From assembly GCA_965248885.1 (NCBI GenBank), contig OZ252211.1, positions 661,179 to 725,178 of the forward strand: DNA of 64,000 nt, in the 5' to 3' direction. Position 1 is the stretch's first letter, and every line of letters begins with the position of its first letter. This DNA comes from Sphingomonas sp. (lineage in GTDB: Bacteria; Pseudomonadota; Alphaproteobacteria; Sphingomonadales; Sphingomonadaceae). Of the stretch, positions 4,834 to 22,519 are shown one piece after another. The translations under genes and the position numbers were made by a program. The notes under the pieces were generated by a model. It was not told the DNA's origin, did no database searches, and saw nothing but the letters and a program-made list of their open reading frames with translations.

Positions 4834-5060
4834 GCAATTGGCAGGGCGCGCCTCGCCTTGGCAAAAGCGCGGTCGGACGCGATGAAACGCACCAACATTG
4901 GCGCGATCAACTTGGCGGGCTCGATGCGCGTACCGGTTTCGGTCGCGAGCACCTCTGCATAGGCTACCAGATCGCGGTGGGTCGCGGCTGGAATCTCCAG
5001 GGTCATTCGTACGGGCCGTTCGTCCGCAATCGCGCCGAGTTTGAGTTTCGTCACGCTCAA
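4815..5060 (-). CDS. DUF2274-family protein (conjugative-element associated, usually follows trbI)
   Basis: 81 aa, MSVTKLKLGAIADERPVRMTLEIPAATHRDLVAYAEVL... Immediately downstream of trbI with a 4-bp overlap, as in Trb-type ICEs. Confidence 0.75.
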   Translation of the reverse strand: MSVTKLKLGAIADERPVRMTLEIPAATHRDLVAYAEVLATETGTRIEPAKLIAPMLVRFIASDRAFAKARRALPIAQPPSE

Positions 5061-6307
5061 CCCCGGTAGGGTTCGAGGATCAGGTCACGGGTGACAATCA
5101 CGCGTACCAGGAAGCCCGGCCGCACGGTGATGGTCGGCTGGATGTCGAGCGACCGGCCGACCACCTGGCGTCCGGTCTGACTGATGCTGTCGGACGCGCC
5201 CCGACGGAGTGCCTGAGACAGGTCGTTCTTGTCGGAGGATGTGCCCGCTTCCGACCCGACGCTAAGCAACGTCGAAAGCACCGCAGCCCGGAACAGCTGC
5301 CCCCAGTGGTTATCGACTCGATCGTGAAGCCCGGCATAGCCTTCCGGATCGGTGCCCGGTTGCCGCTTCAGGACAATCGAGCGCCCGTTGGGCAGGATCA
5401 GCCGCGTCCAGACCAGGAGCGCCCGGTTCTGACCGAACGAGATCTGCGCGTCGTACTGGCCGACCAGGCGCGACCCCTGCGGGATGAGCAACGTGCGACC
5501 TGTCGGGCCGTCATAGACGTTTTCGGTGACCTGCGCGGCGATCTGGCCGGGAAGATCGGATCGCAGGCCTGTGATCATCGCGGCGGCAATGACCGCGCCC
5601 GCTTGGAGCGTGTAGGGGCTGGCCGGCGCCGCGACGCGTTCGGTGCTGACGGTATTGCGATCGACCGCGCCGTTGAGGAAGGCGAGCTTACGATCGGAGC
5701 CGGTCGGTTGGGCCGGTTGAGACCCCTCGCTCACGGGCGTCCCCATCCCCGCAAGTCCGAGCGAGGGGGCTGCCGCCCCGGCGCCAGGTTGTGCGGTTCG
5801 CGCCTCGCTGGCGAACAGCCGACTGGTCCGCGCTGCGTCTAACTCCTGGGCGACGCGCTGGCGCCGCTGCTCGGCCTGCTGCCGGGCTGGATCTGGCGGC
5901 GAGCCCGCGCTAGTCGCCATCGGCGGCGGCGGCGTGCCGGCGGCTAGCATCGGGCGACCGAGATCGCCGGGGAGCGGCGGCCCGAGCTGCGGGACCGAGC
6001 GGGGCAGCCCGCCATAGTCGCCCGGAAGGCGTGCCAGGCCGTCGGCGGTCGTCCGGTGATCGGTGGCGTAGAGCTCTTCACTCGGCGCCTTGGGGTGCGA
6101 GCCCTGGAGCGCGAACACGAGCGCGCCACCCAAGGCGACCGCCGACACGCCCGCCAGCGTCGCGAGCGCGCGCCGCGACAGCCGCATGACGCGGGGCCGC
6201 TCCGGACGCAGCCGAAACGCCGCGGACCTGTCACGCGGCGGCTCGGGAAGGTCTGTTCGGGCCGAGGGCGCGTTCGCCTCGCGGTCTTCGACGCGGTCGT
6301 CGGTCAC
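5057..6307 (-). CDS. trbI: conjugal transfer protein TrbI (VirB10 family)
   Basis: 416 aa. Pro-rich N-terminal half with a TM segment. Conserved C-terminal VirB10 domain (...LVGQYDAQISFGQNRALLVWTRLILPNGRSIVL...RPGFLVRVIVTRDLILEPY). Confidence 0.9.
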   Translation of the reverse strand: MTDDRVEDREANAPSARTDLPEPPRDRSAAFRLRPERPRVMRLSRRALATLAGVSAVALGGALVFALQGSHPKAPSEELYATDHRTTADGLARLPGDYGGLPRSVPQLGPPLPGDLGRPMLAAGTPPPPMATSAGSPPDPARQQAEQRRQRVAQELDAARTSRLFASEARTAQPGAGAAAPSLGLAGMGTPVSEGSQPAQPTGSDRKLAFLNGAVDRNTVSTERVAAPASPYTLQAGAVIAAAMITGLRSDLPGQIAAQVTENVYDGPTGRTLLIPQGSRLVGQYDAQISFGQNRALLVWTRLILPNGRSIVLKRQPGTDPEGYAGLHDRVDNHWGQLFRAAVLSTLLSVGSEAGTSSDKNDLSQALRRGASDSISQTGRQVVGRSLDIQPTITVRPGFLVRVIVTRDLILEPYRG

Positions 6308-7563
6308 GACGCGGGCCCTCCGCTTTCGCTCCGGGCGCTCGTCGCCTGCGAGGCTCCCCCGGAGCCACGCATCCGCTGAAGCGGACCGCTCCTCACCCCA
6401 TCAGTCCGGACGATCCGCACGCGCTGCTGACGCGAGCCGCCCAAGCGCAACTCGGCGGCGGCGAACAGTCGGTCGACGATCATGTGGTGGCCGCGAACGC
6501 GGTAGTTGACGAGCTCGGCGCGACCCTCGGCACCAATGATCCAGAGCGGGGGCATCTCGCCCTGTCCTATCCCGGCCGGGAATTCGATGAACACCTGGCG
6601 ACCGTCGTCGAAGGCGCGGATCGGTCGCCAGGGCACGGCATCGCCTTCGATGCGGTAGCGGAACTGCAGGTTCTCGATCGCGGTGGCGCTGCTTTCGCCG
6701 ACGGGCTGGGCGGCTTCGGCCGCAGCGTTCTGGCGACGCAGCGCGATGAGCTGGTCGGCGGCGTAGGACCAGGAGACCGACGCCATGTAGGTGCGCTCGG
6801 CGGAGCGCATCTCGAGGTGATAGGTCCGGCGATCGGTGTTGATGACGAGGTTGGTGACGAGATCGGTGCGCGACGGCTTCACGAGGATGTGGACACGCCG
6901 CGTCGGGCCGGCGCCGCTTTCGGTATCGCCGATGATCCAGCGCACCGTGTCACCGGCCGCGACCGGGCCGGTGCCGACGAGCTGTTCGTCGGGCTCCAGC
7001 GCGATGTCGGTGACCTGGCCGGGCGCGGCGTAGAGTTGATAGAGCGCGCCGTCGGCGAAGGGATAGACCTGCACGGCGTTGACGTAGCCGCTGCGCGAGG
7101 GCTGGACCCGGGCGGCGCCGTTGGCGGCTTCGACCCGCGCCCGCGGATCGGCGGGTTCGCTCGCGGGCACAGGGATCGGGCCGGGCAGCGGCATCAGCTG
7201 ACCCGGCAGGGGCAGCGGCTGTGAGATGGTGACGATCTGCACCGGCCGCGGGAGTTCGGGGGCCAGGACGGCCGGCGTCAACGGCGCATCGTAGCTGATG
7301 GTCGGGGGCGAGTATTTGTGGGCGCAGGCGGCGCCCGCGACCGAGGCACCGCCGCTGGCGAGGCCAGCGACCGCGCCGCCGGCGAGAGATGCGCCACCGG
7401 TCGCGAGCGCAGCGCCCCCGGCCAGCACGCCGCCTGCGGCGAGACCGGTGCCGATCGCGGCACCCGCGCCGAGCTGTGGGCCACCGGAGACGATACCGTT
7501 GGCGATCCCGGGTCCGAAAATCCCAAGGCCGAGCAAGGTGAGCGAGGCGAGCATGATGCCCAT
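6304..7563 (-). pseudogene. trbG: TrbL Gly-rich C-terminal tail fused in frame to a TrbG (VirB9-like) body; trbF and the TrbG signal peptide are absent
   Basis: Frame of ORF 6304..7704 taken from the internal Met. MGIMLASLTLLGLGIFGPGIANGIV plus poly-Gly/Ala matches the TrbL/VirB6 tail. It then runs without a stop into TrbG-like sequence (GYVNAVQVYPFADGALYQLYAAPGQVTDIALEPDE ... PIRAFDDGRQVFIEFP). No TrbF-like sequence appears in any frame. Confidence 0.6.
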
Positions 7564-7564
7564 C

Positions 7565-8275
7565 GCGTCCCTCGATCGTCGGTGTGGCCGGAAAGCCGGT
7601 CTTGAACTCGTCGAACAGAGTCGAGCCGATGCCGATGATGACGGCGAGGACGAGCACCTTGATGCCTGACGACATGACGTTGCCGAGCACGCGCTCGGCG
7701 GCAAACGCGGTCTTGTTGAACAGGCCGAACGGGATGAGCACGAAGCCCGCGAGCGTCGTCAGCTTGAACTCGATGAGCGTGACGAAGAGCTGGATCGCGA
7801 GGATGAAGAACGACAGCAGCACGATCACCCAGGCGAACAGCAGCACCGCGATCTGGATGAAGTTCTCGAAGAACGACACGTAGCCCACCAGGCCGGAGAT
7901 CGAATCGAGGATCGGCTTGCCCGCGTCGAGGCCGACCTGCGCGACGCGGCCGGGCCGCAGGAAATCGGCCGTCGCGAGCGAGGTTCCCGAGGCCTTCAGC
8001 CCGAGGTGCGCGAAGCTCTCGAACACGATGCGGGCAAGGTTGCCCCAATTGTTGATGATGAAGGCGAAGGCGCCGACGAACAGCACTTTCTTGACGAGGC
8101 GTGCCGGCACGTTCTCGTCGGGCGCCCACGCCCAGAACAGCGCGGCGAGCACGAGATCGATGACGATCAACGTCGCCGCCAGCCACTTCACCTCGCCCTG
8201 CAGCAGGCCAAACCCGCTGTCGATGTAGCGGGTGAAGACCTCGAGGAAGCGATCGACGACGCCGGTCCCGCCCAT
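7565..8275 (-). pseudogene. trbL: TrbL/VirB6 N-terminal 236 aa; reading frame breaks at ~7566 (extra G in gaGGGac)
   Basis: MGGTGVVDRFLEVFTRYIDSGFGLLQGEVKWLAATL... with multiple TM helices ending ...FKTGFPATPTIEG, then junk in this frame. The expected continuation DAMGIML is in the +1 frame (see 6304-7563). Confidence 0.75.
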
Positions 8276-8277
8276 GG

Positions 8278-8613
8278 TCAGCGCCCCTCTGTCGGCATGG
8301 AGACGACGGCGGGATTGGGCGCGACGGGGCGGCGATCGGGTGCGAGGAACCGACGACGGTTCTCTGCCCATGCCGCTAGGCATGCGGGGTCGTGCGCGCC
8401 CGCCTCGCCGAGACCCTGGCACCGCGCGAATTCTGCCTGTAGCGGGTCCGTCGCAACGATGTTCTCGGTGGCCTGACGTTCGGCCGACGACGTCTGATCG
8501 GTCGTCGCCATCCAGGCGGCGGCGCCGGCGAGGATGATGCCGATCAGGATCAGCACGATCAGCTTCTTGGCGGCCGGACCTTCCATCGTGCGAAATCCAA
8601 GCAAACGCCGCAC
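8278..8613 (-). CDS. TrbK-alt-like small entry-exclusion lipoprotein of Trb-type ICEs
   Basis: 111 aa with a TM/signal segment (KKLIVLILIGIILAGAAAWMA) and a conserved-looking C-terminus (DPLQAEFARCQGLGEAGAHDPACLAAWAENRRRF). Sits between the trbJ fragment and trbL as in ICE trb operons. Confidence 0.55.
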   Translation of the reverse strand: MRRLLGFRTMEGPAAKKLIVLILIGIILAGAAAWMATTDQTSSAERQATENIVATDPLQAEFARCQGLGEAGAHDPACLAAWAENRRRFLAPDRRPVAPNPAVVSMPTEGR

Positions 8614-8627
8614 CGTCGCCTCCGTCA

Positions 8628-9062
8628 GTTGTGGAACATCGTGACGGTCGTCGGCCGGTAGCCGGTCCCCGGCGTCAGGAAGCGACGGAGCTGTTCGCGC
8701 GCCTGGTCCTGCGCGGCGGCACGTTGAGCCGCTTCGAGGCTCTGCGCTCGGCCCTGCGCGGCGACCGCCGCAGTCAGGTCGGCGAGTTGCTGTGCCTGGA
8801 GCGCGAGCAACTGGTTGCCGGCTTGTGCGGCCTGCAGCGCACCAGTCGCGCCTTGGCTCGAGGAGACGAGCGCGGACATCTGGCTGCGGTTGGTGTCGAG
8901 GTTGCCGACGACGGTCGCCTGCGCGTCCAGATCACCGACAACAGCGGGCGCGGCGTACGCGACGAAGGCAAGGTCGTCTCGGCGATCGACATGAACATCC
9001 AGCGGCTCGACCGCGAGGAGCGCCGGCTGGGGCTGCGCGGCATTGGTGAGGATTTGCGCATT
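8628..9062 (-). pseudogene. trbJ: TrbJ C-terminal fragment (~145 aa); N-terminal ~100 aa and the upstream trbB-E genes are absent
   Basis: Minus-strand translation ...NAQILTNAAQPQPALLAVEPLDVHVDRRDDLAFVAYAAPAVVGDLDAQATVVGNLDTNRSQMSALVSSSQGATGALQAAQAGNQLLALQAQQLADL...RRFLTPGTGYRPTTVTMFHN is a TrbJ-like coiled-coil tail. Homology stops at ~9060, where the upstream frame becomes Arg-rich junk. Confidence 0.55.
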
Positions 9063-9512
9063 CCGCGTTCGACGACCTTTTCGTTTTCCGGCTTCGGACC
9101 GACGGCGACGCCGCCACCGGGCCTGCCGGTTCTCACGACCGATGCGGTGCTCGCTTTCGGCCGCTCGCGCACCCGCACGGACGGCGGCGATGGTGACGTG
9201 CGGCTGCTAATCGGGGATGTTGGCGGCAAAATCGATGAAGAGCTTTCGCAAATGGTGTCGCGCCGCCATTTCGAAGTTTACGTCGAGAACGATCGACTGA
9301 TGCTGCGTGTCAACGGCTCCAACGGCCTCAGGATCAACGGCAAGGCCCACGGCGTCGACACGGTCGTTCGACTCAGCGACGGCGACATCATCGCTCCGGT
9401 CGTCAAAGCGCCCGACGCCCTGACGCTGGCCGTCCGCTTTGCGCGCGAGCGCGATCAGGTGTGCGCGATCACCATAGCGCAATCGCCGGAATTCAAGGGG
9501 GCGGCGCTATGA
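8991..9512 (+). CDS. FHA-domain protein; start uncertain (ATG 8991 or TTG 9054)
   Basis: C-terminal FHA fold: AVLAFGRSRTRTDGGDGDVRLLIGDVGGKIDEELSQMVSRRHFEVYVENDRLMLRVNGSNGLRINGKAHGVDTVVRLSDGDII. Stop overlaps the kinase ATG (ATGA at 9509-9512). Confidence 0.6.
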   Translation: MNIQRLDREERRLGLRGIGEDLRIPRSTTFSFSGFGPTATPPPGLPVLTTDAVLAFGRSRTRTDGGDGDVRLLIGDVGGKIDEELSQMVSRRHFEVYVENDRLMLRVNGSNGLRINGKAHGVDTVVRLSDGDIIAPVVKAPDALTLAVRFARERDQVCAITIAQSPEFKGAAL

Positions 9513-11070
9513 TCAAATGCCTGCAATGTGGCGCCGATAATCCCGCCGGTAACACGTTTTGCCAGAATTGCGGAAAGCCCATTTTGGCTGTGGGCAGCGG
9601 CGGTGCGGCGCTGCAGACGCTAAGTGGATTGCGGACGATCGGCGGCGGCGAGACGCTGCACCACGATGCCTATCCGAAGGGCGACGTCGCAATCCTCGAG
9701 CCGGGCGCGGTATTTGCCGGCCGCTACACGATCGAATCGCGTATCGGAATCGGCGGGATGGGCGTTGTTTATCGTGCCAAGGACAAGATCGGCGACCGGA
9801 TCGTGGCGCTGAAGCTCATTCGCTCGGACCGGCTTTCCGGCGAAGACGCCGTCAGCCGGCTCAGCGCTGAAGGTGTTCTCACTCAGGATATTCGCCACAA
9901 GAACATCGTCAACGTTTACCATGTCGATCAATTCGAAGGTCAGCCATTCCTGTCGATGGAGTTCGTCGAAGGCGTGTCGCTGCGCGAATGGATCCGCAAG
10001 CAGAAGCGCGCGGGGACCGAGGTGGGCCTCATGGTGGCCGCGCGGATCGTGAACGAGGTGCTCGCTGGCCTTCAGGTCGCGCATGAGATGGGCATCGTCC
10101 ACCGTGATCTTAAACCCGAGAACATCATGCTGACGGCGGAACCGAGCGCCGACGCTGCGGCGCTCAAGATCCTTGATTTCGGCATCGCGCGCGTCGAGGC
10201 GCGGCAGGTCGTCAGTGGCACCGGCCGCGAAGGCACCGTCGAATATATGGCGCCTGAGCAAATTACCGACGCCGACAGTGCCGGCCCCGAGGCCGATTTC
10301 TACTCGCTTTCGATCATCTTTTACGAGCTGCTCGTCGGGGTGCTGCCGAAGGGGGGCTGGCAACCCCGTCGAGCGGCCGGTCCGACGTGCCGACGGGAAT
10401 CGATTCACTGATCCAGTCGGGGCTCCAGAACCGGACGGCAAGCCGTCCGCAGAGCGTCGCCGAATATCGCCAGAAACTCAACGCTGCGATCGGCAGTGCG
10501 CCGATCGGCGGAAAAAAGCGCACGGATGTCGATCGGTTCGTCGGCGGCGACGATCCGCCGAAGAAGCACAACTGGTGGATAATCGGCGGCGGTATCTTTG
10601 CTGGGTTCCTCGTGCTCGGCGTGATCGGCAACATGATCGACCAGACCGAGCCTGGGATTCTCAAAAACGGCAACGTTATAACTTCGACCGGGGGCCGTGA
10701 GGACGATCCGCCGCCGCCACCGCCGCCACCGCTGCCCAGCTATTCGCAGCTGAGCGGCCAGTGGCTCGACGGAAACGGCGCTGGCATCGCGGCCGACGTC
10801 AACGCCAACGGGACATTTTCCGGGACCGGTCGCGCAACCGATGGCACGCCGTTCACAATTCAGGGCGCTTTTTCGGGAACCGTCGCGAATTATACCGTCA
10901 CCAACACCGCCGGCGCGCTCGGCGGTCGGCTGGCGTGGGACGGCCGCAATTGCCACCTCGACTTCCGGACGCTGTATCCCAACGGCGCGATCGCCGTGCA
11001 AGGGCAGTTCCACGTCAATCACGCACCGGGAGAACCCTGTCCGGCGGGATGGGGTGCAAACGGGCCATGA
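9509..11070 (+). pseudogene. membrane Ser/Thr protein kinase (N-terminal zinc-ribbon, Hanks kinase, TM helix, extracytoplasmic domain) with a frameshift at ~10351-10368
   Basis: N-terminal zinc ribbon MIKCLQCGADNPAGNTFCQNCGKP. Kinase motifs VALKLI, HRDLKPENIML, DFGIA and APE, ending ...FYELLVGVLPKGGW in frame 2 (ORF 9461..10411). Continuation ...SDVPTGIDSLIQSGLQNRTASRPQSVAEYRQKL, TM helix WWIIGGGIFAGFLVLGVIG and a ~150-aa extracytoplasmic domain run in frame 1 (ORF 10387..11070). The break lies in the ggggggctggcaaccccg run. Confidence 0.75.
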
Positions 11071-11086
11071 CTTCAGGAGACCGAGC

Positions 11087-12028
11087 ATGACAGACAGTTG
11101 GAACGGCCATCCGCTCAACGGCTGCCTTTTCGAGGCAACACCGTCGCCTGCGCCGACGCTGGGGCTCGCGACCGGTCAGGGCGCGCTGCCGCGGCGGGTC
11201 GACCTGCGCGCTCACTGCACGCCGGTCGAGAATCAGGAAAAAACCAACAGCTGCGTTGCGAACGCTATCGTCGGCGCGCTCGAGCTGCACCAGCGCAAGG
11301 CGGGATTGCCGGTTACTGATCTATCGCGGCTGTTCCTATACTACAACGCGCGCAGCCTTTCGAAGACCGAGGGGCGGGATTGCGGCACTCACATCCATCA
11401 CGGAATGGCCGCCGTGCTCGCCTATGGCGTCTGCGAGGAACGGATGTGGCCGTTTGAAACCGCGATGGTTACGGCCCCGCCGACCGAGGCCTGTTTCAAG
11501 AATGCGACCTCCTATGAGGCGGTGCAGTTCGCGCGCACGCCGGCGGGACAGCCGGCGATGGCGGCATTGGCACAGGGGCTTCCCGTCGCGTTCGGCATCG
11601 TTTTGCCTGGCGAATGCTATACCGTTGCAGCCAAGACCGGGACGGTTCCCAATCCGGACACCATTCAGGTGCAGAGCGCGCCGAGCGGGCACGCCATGCT
11701 GATCGTCGGCTACGACATAGACGAGAAAGTCTATTTCGTCCGCAACAGTTGGGGCGCTGGCTATGGCCAGAACGGTTATATCAACGTGCCCTTCGACGTG
11801 ATGGAGCGCCACGCGCGTCCCGATCAGTTCTGGACGATCGGGGCGATCGAACAATCACCGGCGCTCAGCATTTTCGGACCGTCGGTGAAAGAGACGGTCG
11901 AGAATGCTACCGAAGGCAAACGCCCGCCGACCAAGCTCGACCTGTTGCGCGCCGAGTTGAAATCGAGCCTCGAATCGCGCCTCGGAAGTGCGCGGCAAGG
12001 CTTTGCAAGTCGGCTTCGCGGGAATTAG
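11087..12028 (+). CDS. papain-like cysteine peptidase (MEROPS C1A-like), no signal peptide
   Basis: 313 aa from ATG 11087 with an AGGAGA RBS. Catalytic Cys context VDLRAHCTPVENQEKTNSCVANAIVGALE and His/Asn context HAMLIVGYD...YFVRNSWGAGYGQNGYINVPFD. Follows the kinase after a 17-bp spacer. Confidence 0.8.
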   Translation: MTDSWNGHPLNGCLFEATPSPAPTLGLATGQGALPRRVDLRAHCTPVENQEKTNSCVANAIVGALELHQRKAGLPVTDLSRLFLYYNARSLSKTEGRDCGTHIHHGMAAVLAYGVCEERMWPFETAMVTAPPTEACFKNATSYEAVQFARTPAGQPAMAALAQGLPVAFGIVLPGECYTVAAKTGTVPNPDTIQVQSAPSGHAMLIVGYDIDEKVYFVRNSWGAGYGQNGYINVPFDVMERHARPDQFWTIGAIEQSPALSIFGPSVKETVENATEGKRPPTKLDLLRAELKSSLESRLGSARQGFASRLRGN

Positions 12029-12418
12029 ATCGTGAGTTGCCATGCTTATGATTGAGGGTGCCCGAGGCGGGACCGTGATCTACTGGAATGTCCAACGCGC
12101 GTCGCGTTCGATGGCTGATCTTCGCTTCGGTGCCCTGCGGCATCCTCTTTTCGTACTTGGCTTTCAACCTGCAGCTGATTTAGGGATTTTCGCCGGCCGA
12201 CGGCGGGGACTTGCGGCCGTTGAACGAACGATGGGCATGGGCCGCACTGGTCATGACGGTCGCTGTGGCGCCATTGACTGGAATGCGGTTTTTTCGTCGG
12301 GATCTGTCTCGTCCGGGTCGAACAATGCGGGTCGTTGCTGATCCTATCGACTGTCCGGGCCTCCGGCGCCGAGGTCGCCGTGTCGAAGGCGAACAGGCAA
12401 CGCGCTCAAGATGAACTG

Positions 12419-12673
12419 ATGCGACAGGGGCGCGCACCGGAACCAATGCAGCTCGCGCGAAACGCAGCGATGCGGACAGTCGCGAGCAGCTTTGCGACGC
12501 CGCTTCGTGCCGCAGGCATTGACGCCAGCGTTGTCGTCCGATTCATCGACCCTTCGGGACGGGAAATCATGTCCTTCCTCGACCGATCGCGCCGCATCGA
12601 GGACGTGTTGCGCAGCCGCCGCGCAGGCGCCCAGAAAATTAGGGCGTCGCGCGACGAGCCTACGGCACCCTAG
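12419..12673 (+). CDS. hypothetical small protein (weak call)
   Basis: 85 aa from the internal ATG of ORF 12335..12673 with unbiased composition (AGIDASVVVRFIDPSGREIMSFLDRSRRIEDVL). No recognisable family. Confidence 0.3.
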   Translation: MRQGRAPEPMQLARNAAMRTVASSFATPLRAAGIDASVVVRFIDPSGREIMSFLDRSRRIEDVLRSRRAGAQKIRASRDEPTAP

Positions 12674-15635: not shown

Positions 15636-15903
15636 ATGAAGCGGAAGCAGTTTTGCCGAAGAGCATATCATCGGCATCCTGAAGGAAGCCGAAGCAGGCG
15701 CGGTGGTGACGGAGCTGTGCCGGCGGCACGGCATGTCGAGCGCGACCTATTACGCATGGAAGGCCAAGTTCGGCGGCCTGGAGGTGTCTGATGCGAAGCG
15801 GCTGCGAGCGCTCGAGGAGGAGAACGCTCGGCTCAAGCGGCTGCTGGCGGATACGATGCTCGACAACGCAGGCCTGAAGGACCTGCTATCAAAAAAATGG
15901 TAG
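15636..15903 (+). pseudogene. IS3 transposase OrfA (HTH), with an N-terminal frameshift (extra T at 15651-15654)
   Basis: ATG 15636 reads MKRKQF then goes out of frame. Downstream frame gives ...[80 protein letters not shown], the canonical IS3 OrfA. Observed TTTTGCC where TTTGCC (F-A) is expected. Confidence 0.7.
15891..15897 (+). promoter_or_regulatory. A AAA AAA slippery heptamer for programmed -1 ribosomal frameshifting (orfA to orfB)
   Basis: Sequence ctatcaAAAAAAAtggtag at the orfA/orfB overlap, the standard IS3-family frameshift signal. Confidence 0.5.
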
Positions 15904-16802
15904 CGCCCGCTGCAAAGCGCGAAGCGGTCGCGCATCTCCAGACGACGCTGGGGATGAGCGAGCGGCGGGCGTGCATGGTCGTCGGGGCGGATCGCAAGAG
16001 TATGCGGTATCGGTCGTGCCGGGCCGATGATGGCGACCTGCGGTCGCGGCTGTGCGAGCTGGCGCAAGCGCGCCGGCGGTTCGGCTATCGGCGGCTGCAC
16101 ATCCTGCTGCGGCGCGACGGCATCACGATCAACCGCAAGAAGACGCAGCGGCTTTACCGCGAAGAGGGGCTGACGGTGCGTCGCAGGAAGGGCCGGAAGC
16201 GCGCTGTCGGCGCACGGGCACCCGCACCTGTGCTGGCGCTTCCCAACCAGCGCTGGAGCCTGGACTTCGTCCACGACCAGCTGGCGACGGGTCGGCGGTT
16301 CCGCGTCCTCAACATCGTCGACGACGTGACGCGCGAGTGCCTGGCGGCGGTGGTCGATACGTCGATCTCGGGCAGACGGGTGGTGCGCGAGTTGAGCGAT
16401 CTGATCGACAGGCGCGGTGCGCCGAGGACGATCGTCAGCGACAACGGGACTGAGCTGACGTCCAACGCCGTGCTGGCATGGTCGGGCGATATGGGCATCG
16501 ACTGGCATTACATCGCGCCCGGCAAGCCGACCCAGAACGGGTTCGTCGAGAGCTTCAATGGTCGCATGCGCGACGAGCTCCTCAACGAGACGCTGTTCTT
16601 CACGATCGGTCAGGCCCGCGCGATCCTCGCCCGCTGGGCCCACGATTACAACACCGAGCGGCCACACTCGTCGCTCGGCTATGCCACCCCGGCGGCCTTC
16701 GCCGCCGAACTCGAAAAGCAACGGGCGGGGTTAACCCCGCCCGTTGCTTCACCTGCGCTCATGCGCGACAACACCGGTCGGTCTCTGGTGGCGGCTGGAT
16801 GA
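15897..16802 (+). CDS. IS3 transposase OrfB (DDE integrase core), normally made as an OrfAB fusion by -1 frameshifting
   Basis: 301 aa with rve-type motifs ([10 protein letters not shown] ... [10 protein letters not shown] ... [12 protein letters not shown] ... [12 protein letters not shown]). Starts within the A AAA AAA slippery run at 15891-15897. Confidence 0.9.
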
Positions 16803-17935: not shown

Positions 17936-20080
17936 ATGTACCGCATTCACTACTTCCGTCGCGCCCTGATCCCGGCCATTGCACTTCTGGTTTCGCTGCC
18001 CGTGATGGGAGCGCTGGGTGCCAGCGCCGCGCCAGCTGCCGCTGCCGACGCCTCGGAGGGTCAGGAGGATGGCCCGCGAGCGGGCACGCTGATGTTGCGC
18101 GGTTTGAAGGCGACCGACGCTGTGCCGGCCATGCGGCTCGGTACCGACATGGATGTCACCGTATCCGGCAGCGTTGCGCGGGTGCGAGTGACGCAAGCGT
18201 TCCGCAACACGTCGGACAAGTGGATGGAGGCGGTTTATCTCTACCCGTTGCCCGACAATGGTGCGGTCGACAGCCTAAAGATGGTGGTCGGCAACCGCGT
18301 AATCGTCGGGCAGATCGAAAAGCGTGAAGCGGCGCGCGCCATCTATGAGCGAGCCAAGGCGAACGGGCAGAAGGCCGGACTGGTCGAGCAGCAGCGCCCC
18401 AACATGTTCACCAACAGCGTCGCCAATGTCGGCCCGGGCGAGACGGTGCTGATCTCGATCGAATATCAGGCGCCCGTCGCGCAAGCGAGCGGCACCTATT
18501 CGCTGCTCCTGCCGCTGGTGGTAGGTCCGCGCTATGCACCGCCGCACACGCTGCGCTCGGGCGCTGCAATGGCGGACGCAAACGCGGTCACCTCGGCGCC
18601 GGTGATGAACCCGAAGACGGGAGTCACGCTCAATCCGACCTCGGTCACCGTGCATCTCCAGCCCGGCTTCGACACGGCGAATGTGATCAGCCGTTATCAC
18701 CGCATCGTGGTCGGCGGTCGCGGGGATAGTCGCACGATCAAGCTCGCGGCCGCCAGCGTGCCGGCCGATCGCGATTTCGAGTTAAACTGGCGTTCCGCCT
18801 CGGCCGATCCGACGTTGGCGTTGTTCCGCCAGCATACGGATGACGGCGACTATGTGATGGCGACGGTCACGCCGCCTGCGGATCTCTCAAGCCTCCCTAC
18901 GCCGCCGCGCGAGATGGTGTTCGTGATCGACAATAGCGGGTCGATGGGGGGCGCGTCGATGAACGAGGCGAAGGCGAGCCTGCTGCACGCGCTGACGACG
19001 CTGCGGCCGCAGGATCACTTCAACATCATTCGGTTTGACGACACGCTCACTCAACTGTTCGACCACAGCGTCGCGGCCACGCCCGACCAGGTCGCGCTTG
19101 CAACGCGGTTCACGCAAGGGCTGGAGGCGAGCGGCGGCACCGAGATGTTGCCGGCGCTGCGCGCTGCGCTGAAGGACGCGGCGGCGAGCGGCGGGCCCGA
19201 GACGCTGCGCCAAGTGATTTTCCTCACCGACGGCGCGGTTTCGGACGAACAGGAGATGATGGCGGCGATCGGGCAGGACGGCGCGCGCAGCCATGTCTTC
19301 TTCGTCGGGATCGGCTCGGCACCGAACGACTTTCTGATGAGCCGCATGGCGACGCTGGGGCGCGGTGCCTACACCCATGTCGGCACGCCCGAAGAGGTCG
19401 CGGCGCGGATGCTGCCGTTGCTCGATATGCTTGGCCACCCTGCGATGCAGGATCTGGCCGTGAAGATCGAAGGCGCCTCGCTCGACATGACGCCGCGGAC
19501 GCTGCCCGACCTTTATGCCGGTCAGCCGCTGGTGCTGGTCGGCAAAACCAAGCATCTGTCGGGCAGAATTACGATCAGCGGCATGATCGGGGGAAAAAGC
19601 TGGGTTCGTACGATCGACCTCGCCAAGGCAGCGGAAAGCCCGGCCGTTGCGAAGCTCTGGGCGCGGCGCCGGATCGACGACATCGAGGCGGATCGTACCC
19701 TCGGGAAGATGGACGAAGCGGCCGCCGATGCCGCGATCACCGAGATCGGGCTGACGAGCGGACTGGTCACCAGCCAGACGAGCCTGATCGCGGTCGACCG
19801 GACGCCGACGCGCCCGGCCGGCGAAGGGCTGGTGAAGGAGGATTTGCCGCTCAACCTGCCCGCCGGCTGGGACTTCGACACCTTGTTCGGCGGCGAGAGT
19901 GGTCAGGCCGCGCTGCGCAATACCGACACGATGGCGGCGCGCGCTGCCGAGCAGGCGAGGCAGCTCGACCTTCCGCAGACCGCGACCGGGTTCATGGGTG
20001 CGATCGCTCAAGGCGCGGCCTTGCTACTGGTCGGGTTGTGCGGCCTGCTGCTGCTCCGCCGTCGGGGAGCGCGGGCATGA
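17936..20080 (+). CDS. marine-proteobacterial sortase target protein (VIT + vWA, C-terminal LPQTATG sorting signal, TM helix, RRRGARA tail)
   Basis: 714 aa with a signal peptide, a vWA MIDAS motif (VFVIDNSGSM) and a C-terminal LPQTATG-hydrophobic-RRRG sequence. Matches the described VIT/vWA sortase-substrate family. Confidence 0.9.
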   Translation: MYRIHYFRRALIPAIALLVSLPVMGALGASAAPAAAADASEGQEDGPRAGTLMLRGLKATDAVPAMRLGTDMDVTVSGSVARVRVTQAFRNTSDKWMEAVYLYPLPDNGAVDSLKMVVGNRVIVGQIEKREAARAIYERAKANGQKAGLVEQQRPNMFTNSVANVGPGETVLISIEYQAPVAQASGTYSLLLPLVVGPRYAPPHTLRSGAAMADANAVTSAPVMNPKTGVTLNPTSVTVHLQPGFDTANVISRYHRIVVGGRGDSRTIKLAAASVPADRDFELNWRSASADPTLALFRQHTDDGDYVMATVTPPADLSSLPTPPREMVFVIDNSGSMGGASMNEAKASLLHALTTLRPQDHFNIIRFDDTLTQLFDHSVAATPDQVALATRFTQGLEASGGTEMLPALRAALKDAAASGGPETLRQVIFLTDGAVSDEQEMMAAIGQDGARSHVFFVGIGSAPNDFLMSRMATLGRGAYTHVGTPEEVAARMLPLLDMLGHPAMQDLAVKIEGASLDMTPRTLPDLYAGQPLVLVGKTKHLSGRITISGMIGGKSWVRTIDLAKAAESPAVAKLWARRRIDDIEADRTLGKMDEAAADAAITEIGLTSGLVTSQTSLIAVDRTPTRPAGEGLVKEDLPLNLPAGWDFDTLFGGESGQAALRNTDTMAARAAEQARQLDLPQTATGFMGAIAQGAALLLVGLCGLLLLRRRGARA

Positions 20081-21199: not shown

Positions 21200-21525
21200 C
21201 TAAGAACCATTCCAGCCTGAGCGCTCCAGTTCATCGTAGATCGGCGTGAGGTCACGGCGCGCGGCCTCAAGCAACCCTTCCGGTGCGGGCGGAATGTCCG
21301 CCCATTTGAAGATCGCGACGTCGGTCACAATCGCGTCGATCACCGTATCGGCCTCGCGCTCCCAACGGCGCACCTGCGCGTAGCTCACAGCGTCGCGCGG
21401 GTAGAGCGCGAGATCATCATGCTTGCGATCCAGATACCCGAGAATATCGGAAGAGTTGACCACCGTCAGGTCGCCATCGATCAAAATCGGTATTTCAGCG
21501 CGCGGATTGTAGCCGGGAGGGGCGA
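21200..21525 (-). pseudogene. glutathione S-transferase fragment (C-terminal ~105 aa; the N-terminal thioredoxin-fold strands are missing)
   Basis: ...PPGYNPRAEIPILIDGDLTVVNSSDILGYLDRKHDDLALYPRDAVSYAQVRRWEREADTVIDAIV... matches the GST region from the VPvL / S.aI..YL motif onward. Upstream in frame is junk that overlaps the RND fragment. Confidence 0.55.
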
Positions 21526-21538
21526 GCGCGCACCCGCG

Positions 21539-22519
21539 ATGCGCCTCGTGTTCGACCAGGAGCGACTGCGGCTGATGGGCCTCGATCCGGCGAGCGTGGC
21601 GCGCCAGGTCACTGCGCTCGTCTCGGGCGTGACGGTGAGCCAGGCAAGGACCGGTGACCGCGTCGTCGACGTCGTCGTGCGCGCACCTGAAGTCGAGCGG
21701 CGAGGGCTCGGCCAACTCGGCGATCTGACCATCGCCAACGCGACTGGGCAGGCAATCCCGCTCAGCGCCGTCGCCCGGCTCCAGCCCGAGTTCGAGGATC
21801 CCGTGCTCATCCGTCGTAACCGCGCGCCGACGATCAGCGTGCGGGCTGATGTGCGTCAAGGCGTGCAACCACCCGACGTGACCGCGTCGATCATGCCGAA
21901 CCTCAAGGCGCTGATCGTCGGCCTGCCGGAGGGCTACGCGCTCACACCTGCGGGCGCGGTCGAGGAAGCGGGCAAGGCCAATGCTGCGCTCGCGCCCATC
22001 TTTCCGATCATGGTGCTGCTGATGCTCGCTGTGATCATGTTCCAGACGCGCAGCTTCCGCATGACCGGGCTGGTGTTCGCGACCGCACCCCTCGGGCTGG
22101 TCGGCGCGGCGCCGTCGCTCGTGCTGACCGGCGCGCCGTTCGGGTTCAATGCGATCCTCGGGTTGATCGGCCTCGCCGGGATTCTGATGGGCAACACACT
22201 GATTCTGGTCGATCAGATCGACCTGGAGAAAGCGCGCGGGCTCGATGATCGCGACGCGGTGATCGAGGCAACAGTGCGGCGCGCCCGTCCCGTCCTGCTG
22301 ACCGCGCTCGCTGCGGTTTTCGCGTTCCTGCCGCTGACGCTGTCGAGCTTCTGGGGACCGCTCGCGATCGTTCTGATCGGGGGTACTCTATTCGGCACGG
22401 CAATTACGCTGTTCTTCCTGCCCGCGCTGTATGCGTTGTGGTTTCGGGTGCGAAGGGTACGCGGCACCGATGATCAGCCGCTCACTGCTGGTCGCAAGAT
22501 TGCCAGTGCAATCGGGTAG
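21539..22519 (+). pseudogene. RND efflux transporter (AcrB/CzcA family) C-terminal ~325 aa only; ~700 N-terminal residues absent
   Basis: MRLVFDQERLRLMGLDPASVARQVTAL ... then the last TM bundle (MVLLMLAVIMFQTRSF...LIGLAGILMGNTLILVDQID...LPALYALWFRV). A full RND pump is ~1,050 aa. This abuts the GST fragment. Confidence 0.7.

Follow-up and report, generated by a model that had tools for sequence, protein, structure and literature searches.

A probable 3' remnant of a conserved five-gene operon for a kinase, an FHA adaptor and a papain-family peptidase beside a decayed trb cluster in Sphingomonas sp.

Described systems and the conserved five-gene operon

A DNA stretch of 64,000 nucleotides from Sphingomonas sp. 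(assembly GCA_965248885.1, contig OZ252211.1, positions 661,179 to 725,178 of the forward strand; called the window here, with all coordinates counted from its first letter) was analysed for a locus with three neighbouring genes, coding for an FHA-domain protein, a Hanks-type Ser/Thr kinase and a papain-family (C1A) cysteine peptidase. With a probability of roughly 0.7, the locus is a 3' remnant (8925 to about 12634) of a conserved chromosomal operon of five genes, the intact copies of which would code for signalling on an SPFH scaffold. SPFH assemblies organise or confine membrane proteases, HflK/C-FtsH being an example. In HflK/C-FtsH and in the stomatin-NfeD/STOPP systems, as in the operon, an SPFH-family scaffold (a putative one in the operon) is genetically linked to a protease. 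In contrast, the protease of the operon is a soluble papain-family enzyme and neither FtsH nor a ClpP-like NfeD, no NfeD domain was found in its gene 1, and phospho-signalling would be added. An NfeD-like partner had been considered for gene 1 and was dropped, since there was no Pfam support.

In Bacillus subtilis, the membrane proteins of SamGHI/YdjGHI recruit a cytosolic SPFH/zinc-ribbon protein in membrane-stress signalling (PMC8581546; bioRxiv 10.64898/2026.02.06.704340). That locus (pspA-ydjGHI) and the operon both have an SPFH gene (predicted in the operon) without transmembrane (TM) segments adjoining genes for small membrane proteins, and zinc-ribbon modules occur in both. The operon differs in having no PspA/ESCRT-III gene, in having an FHA adaptor, a Hanks kinase and a cysteine protease as partners, and in its longer and divergent gene 2. 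The combination of SPFH, coiled coil and zinc ribbon was also described for archaeal ESCRT loci (PMC10936438), and SPFH 24-mers form a lidded membrane compartment according to the account of Ma et al. (2022) given in PMC10936438. A transmembrane Hanks kinase paired with an FHA reader is found in PpkA-Fha1-PppA of type VI secretion systems (T6SS), whereas the operon includes neither T6SS genes nor a PP2C phosphatase. Finally, ECF43 sigma factors are activated by an adjacent Hanks kinase (PMC13147305), and adjacent sigma and kinase genes are the hallmark arrangement of this group (PMC13147305, PMC7826278). The operon of the relatives resembles such pairs (EcfK-PknS, EcfP-PknT) in lying adjacent to, and divergent from, genes for an ECF sigma factor and a kinase of about 790 aa, while the window is devoid of any ECF sigma gene.

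The operon was delineated by scanning one genome per species with an alignment of the peptidase, which gave 78 loci, and by mapping all open reading frames (ORFs) of these loci with iterated hidden Markov models of each component. The informative set consisted of 59 species-level loci in which the sequence available upstream of the peptidase gene amounted to 5.6 kb or more. The complete series was present in 55 of them, in the following order: a protein with three TM segments (gene 1, about 170–187 aa), a predicted SPFH/coiled-coil/zinc-ribbon protein (gene 2, about 550 aa), a zinc-ribbon FHA protein (gene 3, about 384 aa), the kinase, and the peptidase in last position. The same series was seen on the plus strand in the peptidase neighbourhoods of Hyphomonas neptunium, Pontixanthobacter and a Sphingomonas metagenome-assembled genome (MAG). 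The hosts belong to Sphingomonadales and Hyphomonadaceae (Alphaproteobacteria), Pseudohongiella and other gammaproteobacterial MAGs, Pirellulaceae and other Planctomycetota, Acidobacteriota, and Gemmatimonadaceae (Gemmatimonadota). An intact copy is carried by H. neptunium ATCC 15444 (CP000158, about 1.669–1.675 Mb), a strain that should be accessible to genetic manipulation. The recurrence of the three genes together, by which the first-pass annotation proposed to judge its own idea, was thus confirmed in 55 of the 59 loci. The three genes do belong together, and their combination is undescribed; full-text literature searches gave no description of the five-gene operon. What did not stand is the idea of a self-contained triplet: the conserved unit has five genes, of which only the last two and a half are present in the window. 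The five genes in order are not found in the window; the genes that it retains are orthologous to those of the operon.

A scan for TM segments gave three in gene 1 and none in gene 2, the FHA protein or the peptidase. Gene 3 is built from an N-terminal zinc module with eight Cys, a middle domain and a C-terminal FHA domain. A C-terminal zinc ribbon was detected in all 19 gene 2 members tested, and a long coiled coil follows the N-terminal region of about 230 residues. In the gene 2 product of locus L077, residues 51–233 matched Band_7 (PF01145) with 37 bits against a cut-off of 23.6. Because of the zinc ribbon, this Band_7 match and the coiled coil, gene 2 is read as a predicted cytosolic, flotillin-like SPFH scaffold. 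No match to NCBIfam or PADLOC was obtained for gene 1, gene 2 or the FHA protein.

The copy in the window

The features of the locus are the following.

8628–8924, minus strand: 3' remnant of trbJ, residues about 151–251 of 255 (tblastn with TrbJ of plasmid pCHQ1, 73% identity over 8628–8930)
8922–8928, no strand: head-to-head deletion junction of trbJ (minus strand) and the FHA gene (plus strand), both truncated at the 5' end (tblastx and limits of the TrbJ alignment)
8925–9512, plus strand: 3' fragment of the zinc-ribbon/FHA adaptor gene, equivalent to residues about 190–384 (tblastn with the FHA proteins of loci L006, L001 and L005; Pfam)
9509–11070, plus strand: Hanks-type Ser/Thr kinase gene with a deletion of 1 nt in the C-run 10364–10367
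Within the kinase gene: zinc ribbon, about 9515–9580; kinase domain, about 9725–10510; TM helix, about 10570–10638; Pro-rich linker; barrel, about 10735–11046
11087–12028, plus strand: gene of an intact, leaderless, xylellain-type C1A cysteine peptidase of 313 aa (Pfam, family alignment, PDB profile, Foldseek)
Catalytic codons of the peptidase, plus strand: Cys56, 11252–11254; His202, 11690–11692; Asn220, 11744–11746
12097–12634, plus strand: retained downstream stretch including the ORF 12335–12673, right end of the syntenic block (tblastx with locus L009, Allosphingosinicella)

Three co-directional genes for an FHA protein, a zinc-ribbon Hanks kinase and a leaderless C1A peptidase are indeed present at 8991–12028, as judged from the ORF listing, the translations and Pfam. 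The domain assignments of the first-pass annotation were upheld for all three proteins with scores above the cut-offs: PF00498 with 33.3 bits (cut-off 20.7) in the FHA ORF 8991–9512, a C4 zinc ribbon (Zn_Ribbon_1) with 26.8 bits and Pkinase with 150.9 bits in the kinase gene, and PF00112 with 55.7 bits (cut-off 20.7) in the peptidase gene. The FHA gene had been described as small and as overlapping the next start. The overlap is there (ATGA, 9509–9512), while the small gene turned out to be the 3' part of a gene for about 384 aa. The spacer between kinase and peptidase genes measures 16 nt rather than the 17 bp given initially, and includes AGGAG, a good Shine-Dalgarno sequence for the peptidase.

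The FHA proteins of relatives aligned to the window by tblastn from about residue 190 ('VQITDNSGR...'), upstream of the ATG at 8991, which corresponds to an internal Met of the full-length protein in the ortholog alignment. In tblastx comparisons with seven Sphingomonadales loci, homology began at exactly 8925 in all seven cases. With the closest relative, the Allosphingosinicella locus, it was continuous from 8925 to 12634 and absent beyond. On the opposite strand, residues 151–251 of the 255 residues of TrbJ from pCHQ1 aligned by tblastn from 8628 to about 8921–8930. Two divergent genes, trbJ and the FHA gene, both deprived of their 5' halves and meeting within a few bases of 8925, are the signature of one deletion, which fused gene 3 and trbJ head-to-head, each at a point midway along the gene. 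It took the rest of trbJ, trbB–E, the intervening DNA, the upstream region of the operon in which the promoter is expected, genes 1 and 2 and, from the FHA gene, 190 codons. No match to genes 1 and 2, the pair m155/m473 found near the operon of relatives, or the ECF sigma factor was obtained anywhere in the 64-kb window.

The retained genes are collinear with those of the operon in Allosphingosinicella and Sphingomonas, and share with them 75–76% (peptidase), about 55–62% (kinase) and 67% (FHA fragment) identity. In the list of conserved columns, the window is gapped at all invariant N-terminal positions of the FHA protein: the eight invariant Cys, which make up two zinc sites, and the middle domain are gone. 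The FHA domain itself is complete (about 9246–9392) with the motifs GR, SRxH and NG; the equivalents of G325-R326 and S358-R359-x-H361 are retained, and NG was read from the translation. An ORF of 112 aa without family match (12335–12673) is kept directly 3' of the peptidase gene in the Allosphingosinicella locus as well (10293–10565 of that locus).

The frameshift that the first-pass annotation had noted in the kinase gene is real in the given sequence, and an uninterrupted kinase reading frame is not found. Frame 1 gives ...LPKGGWQP and stays open from there to a stop at 10409–10411, and the remainder lies in the -1 frame. The addition of one C to the run of four at 10364–10367 restores ...GGWQPPSSGRSDVP..., in agreement with every ortholog, and the repaired kinase reads ...GGWQPPSSGRSDVPTGID..., again as in every ortholog. 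In the source assembly, the split kinase is annotated as two proteins of 300 and 227 aa.

Left of the junction lies a decayed trb cluster at 5057–8924 in the order trbJ-K-L-G-I, with trbJ rightmost and trbF lost between trbL and trbG; TrbI, CagX/TrbG, TrbL and TrbK were recognised by Pfam. The truncation of trbJ and the missing trbB–E, both pointed out in the first-pass annotation, were verified by tblastn, which gave no match to trbE, trbB or trbF in the window. At 6397–8275 (minus strand), trbL changes frame near 7570 and ends at about residue 308 of 453; trbG begins at residue 32 directly after it. With this pattern of deletions and frameshifts shared by the trb genes, the region as a whole is decaying. 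The loss of the 5' end and of the promoter region, together with the frameshift, makes a working sensor-effector module in this genome unlikely, although such a module had been proposed at first. The copy in the window has probably lost its function or kept a residue of it.

The damage is not claimed to be that of an old pseudogene, since the proteins of the window are as conserved as intact orthologs. At columns with at least 90% conservation, deviations amounted to 0 of 80 in the kinase, 1 of 55 in the peptidase and 1 of 21 in the FHA fragment, values typical of intact orthologs. As the conserved residues are undisturbed, the damage is read as recent; the alternatives are a recent truncation and ongoing selection on the genes that are left.

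Selection would be expected if the remnant still worked as a reduced module, in which the frameshift would be a homopolymer error, an FHA-only protein of 173 aa would start at ATG 8991, and kinase and peptidase would be expressed by read-through or from a new promoter. This explanation, which we consider unlikely, draws on the position of the indel in a C-run, on the absence of excess changes at conserved positions in the three proteins, on the completeness of the FHA domain and its phosphothreonine-binding motifs, and on a fully intact peptidase gene with its good Shine-Dalgarno sequence. Against it, a search of the plus strand at 8400–9000 for a sigma-70-like promoter was negative, a weak test in that promoter and terminator counts are at the level of shuffled sequence, and ATG 8991 is not preceded by a Shine-Dalgarno sequence. 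Moreover, genes 1 and 2 are lost, as is the N-terminal half of the adaptor, all of them invariant across phyla, and the adjoining trb genes are equally deleted and frameshifted.

The interpretation as a truncated remnant of an SPFH-scaffolded operon meets several difficulties. Undecayed conserved sites would be expected just as well if a reduced module were still under selection, and the FHA fragment retains both a complete FHA domain and an ATG in frame (8991). The kinase indel sits in a homopolymer and may be an error of sequencing or assembly. The 3-Mb genome may carry genes 1 and 2 at some other place that the window does not cover. As to the intact operon, the Pfam threshold for SPFH was reached by only one of the 19 gene 2 orthologs, the other 18 being too divergent and below detection, and the gene 2 profile matched only the zinc ribbon among PDB sequences. 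The model of the peptidase has a pLDDT of 62.8, and autoinhibition by its N-terminal extension is proposed by analogy with xylellain only. The mechanism proposed below is likewise built on domain content and gene order only.

Kinase ectodomain and peptidase

All kinase motifs (the VALK Lys, HRDLKPEN, DFG and APE) are present in the translation, and a single hydrophobic segment spans residues 355–377. The ectodomain, for which no family could be assigned at first, comprises about 143 residues past the TM segment and indeed has no match in Pfam. It was modelled as an eight-stranded up-and-down beta-barrel with a pLDDT above 93. Two Cys and three His are conserved in the ortholog alignment, which suggests a disulfide and possibly a metal or redox site in a periplasmic barrel; a metal, a redox cue or a small hydrophobic molecule would be candidate ligands. 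The residues lie in a C-H ... H-V-N-H ... P-C-P cluster at about 10950–11046 of the window (C189, H190, H209, H212 and C218 of the 227-aa fragment). In an exhaustive HMMER scan of 1.84 billion representatives, the ectodomain was found in only 58, for the most part C-terminal in proteins of about 500 aa, shorter hits being set aside. The barrel is specific to the family and, given this rarity, it is not a common housekeeping sensor domain, which the first-pass annotation had named as a finding that would speak against its proposal.

The catalytic residues of the peptidase had been reported as intact, and Gln50, Cys56, His202 and Asn220 are present and invariant in 15 diverse orthologs of the family alignment. 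The absence of a leader was also confirmed: there is no hydrophobic N-terminal segment, and the N-terminus MTDSWNGHPLNG... lacks n- and h-regions. Among PDB sequences, the peptidase profile scored 148 bits with xylellain (3OIS) and about 53 bits with cathepsins. In Foldseek the top match was again 3OIS with 30% identity, and xylellain and cathepsin matches had a probability of 1.0. With xylellain as its closest solved relative, the enzyme is therefore placed among the short, xylellain-type bacterial C1A peptidases.

Xylellain and the peptidase both have a short papain fold with an N-terminal extension and without a classical long propeptide. The family of the window differs by its own motif GCxFE..P.PAPxL in a conserved N-terminal extension of 33 aa, by a conserved helical C-terminal tail of about 60 aa ending in F..RLRG, and by its setting in an operon with kinase, FHA and putative SPFH genes. 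In xylellain the active site is reportedly blocked by an N-terminal segment, as Leite and co-workers are said to have found in 2013. Some orthologs (P0041, P0091 and P0108) bear one or two N-terminal zinc ribbons like those of the scaffold, the adaptor and the kinase, which fit a cytoplasmic location and hint at docking shared with these proteins. For the bacterial intracellular members of the papain family, functional data on two species only are noted in PMC10380794.

Proposed function of the intact operon and competing explanations

By analogy with SamGHI, with protease-organising SPFH assemblies and with ECF43 sigma/kinase pairs, the intact operon most likely represents a phospho-signalling system, scaffolded by the putative SPFH protein, that would gate a cytoplasmic protease. 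Its role is likely envelope or membrane-state signalling rather than phage defence. In the proposed sequence of events, the three-TM protein would anchor the cytosolic SPFH scaffold to the membrane, and the barrel of the kinase would sense a small periplasmic ligand or the state of the envelope. The kinase would autophosphorylate or phosphorylate partners and so create phosphothreonine marks, which the FHA adaptor may read on the SPFH platform. The cytoplasmic cysteine protease would thereupon be brought in, or relieved of inhibition, and cleave a target. Transcription of the operon would probably be driven by the neighbouring kinase-activated ECF sigma factor. The recurrence of zinc ribbons in scaffold, adaptor, kinase and some proteases, together with the membrane anchor and the transmembrane kinase, suggests that the operon proteins form a single membrane-associated complex.

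The operon joins parts that are well studied separately, namely SPFH/flotillin scaffolds (as predicted for gene 2), Hanks kinase/FHA signalling and papain-family proteases. It is strongly conserved across several phyla, uncharacterised, and a variant of kinase/FHA signalling to which an intracellular papain-like protease is coupled. In its most complete form, the proposal is that of an undescribed signalling machine, in which a membrane-anchored SPFH scaffold would bring together a Hanks kinase that senses a ligand and an FHA adaptor, the three of them controlling a papain-family protease inside the cell, with wiring to a kinase-activated ECF sigma factor and with a recently inactivated copy in the window. 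This full version is tentative, and we would sooner doubt than assert it. If true, it would describe a phosphorylation-controlled pathway of regulated proteolysis without characterised counterpart. For the genome considered here the outcome is deflationary: what looked like a novel cargo module of an integrative and conjugative element (ICE) would be a deletion scar, the tail of an operon without its head.

Of the 59 loci, 36 had an ECF sigma factor and the kinase of about 790 aa near the operon, in most cases divergent from gene 1, and the sigma factor scored 211 bits with TIGR02999. The small multi-TM protein m155 (about 155 aa) was also present in 36 of 59 loci, and the lipoprotein-like m473 (385–473 aa) in 21. 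Neither m155 nor m473 matched Pfam, NCBIfam or PADLOC.

It is rather improbable that the intact operon is a conflict system of the anti-phage or abortive-infection type, in which the kinase or the putative SPFH assembly would sense infection or membrane damage and unleash the protease on host or phage proteins. Its distribution across distant phyla is patchy, which suggests horizontal transfer, and the protease, as a candidate effector, occurs as two or three tandem C1 paralogs 3' of the kinase gene in 14 of the 59 loci. Phages have acquired xylellain-type C1A peptidases (PMC10380794), and kinase-based defence systems exist, as the PADLOC models attest. On the other side, PADLOC v2 gave no match for the FHA protein, the peptidase, gene 1 or gene 2 and matched only the kinase domain in a generic manner. 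Within Hyphomonas and Henriciella the arrangement of the genes is stable, the ECF/kinase and m155/m473 neighbours included, the flanks in the loci inspected are metabolic (ectoine genes, glutathione S-transferases, a TonB-dependent receptor) and not defence islands, and a periplasmic ectodomain of ligand-binding type points to an extracellular cue. The generic PADLOC matches and the stable chromosomal contexts of relatives leave the defence or abortive-infection role suggested in the first-pass annotation without positive support.

Control of the T6SS Fha/PpkA type was rejected as well: the TagH model TIGR03354 scored 18.8–21.7 bits against a cut-off of 120, and no phosphatase or T6SS genes were found in this region of the window or in the loci of relatives.

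Very improbable, finally, is the original view of a self-sufficient FHA/sensor kinase/protease triplet serving as abortive-infection-like or cargo-protection cargo of an ICE: the genes do lie directly beside trb genes, where trbB–E would be, and the defence kinase models PD-T4-6, MAD6 and PglW do match the kinase domain, but these matches are generic, the triplet never forms the start of an operon in the relatives examined, its FHA gene is cut at about residue 190, no Trb homolog occurs within 10 kb of the operon in any of 86 related loci fetched, and conjugation genes are present on one side only, with miscellaneous genes and then core metabolism on the right.

Flanking regions and variant loci

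The module had been described as embedded in a type IV secretion system (T4SS) remnant. It does adjoin the trb remnant to the left; the ORFs examined on the right-hand side included no conjugation, relaxase or integrase genes, and it therefore borders a T4SS remnant rather than lying inside an ICE. Beyond 12.7 kb come unrelated genes, an IS3 transposase and gene fragments, and then core metabolism (transketolase, PGK, MetH). This part includes an IS3-family transposase pair (15703–16802), a VIT-vWA protein (17936–20080) and a C-terminal fragment of an AcrB-type transporter (21419–22519; 366 aa, profile positions 711–1019 only). The content of the stretch between the remnant and the core genes, which begin at about 25 kb, suggests a rearranged and decaying region.

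In the relatives, the m155/m473 pair accompanies the operon at variable positions (L005, L006, L009–L012, L017 and others). Many of the hosts (Hyphomonas, Henriciella, Pirellulaceae, Gemmatimonadaceae, Porphyrobacter) belong to groups that include budding or prosthecate bacteria, a feature that may be due to coincidence or sampling. No FHA gene was found in locus L041, and in L039 it is not adjacent and lies elsewhere in the locus. Tandem paralogs of the peptidase or other variants are seen in L047, L056, L058, L070–L075 and L079–L082, and the order of the FHA and kinase genes is swapped in L070–L072.

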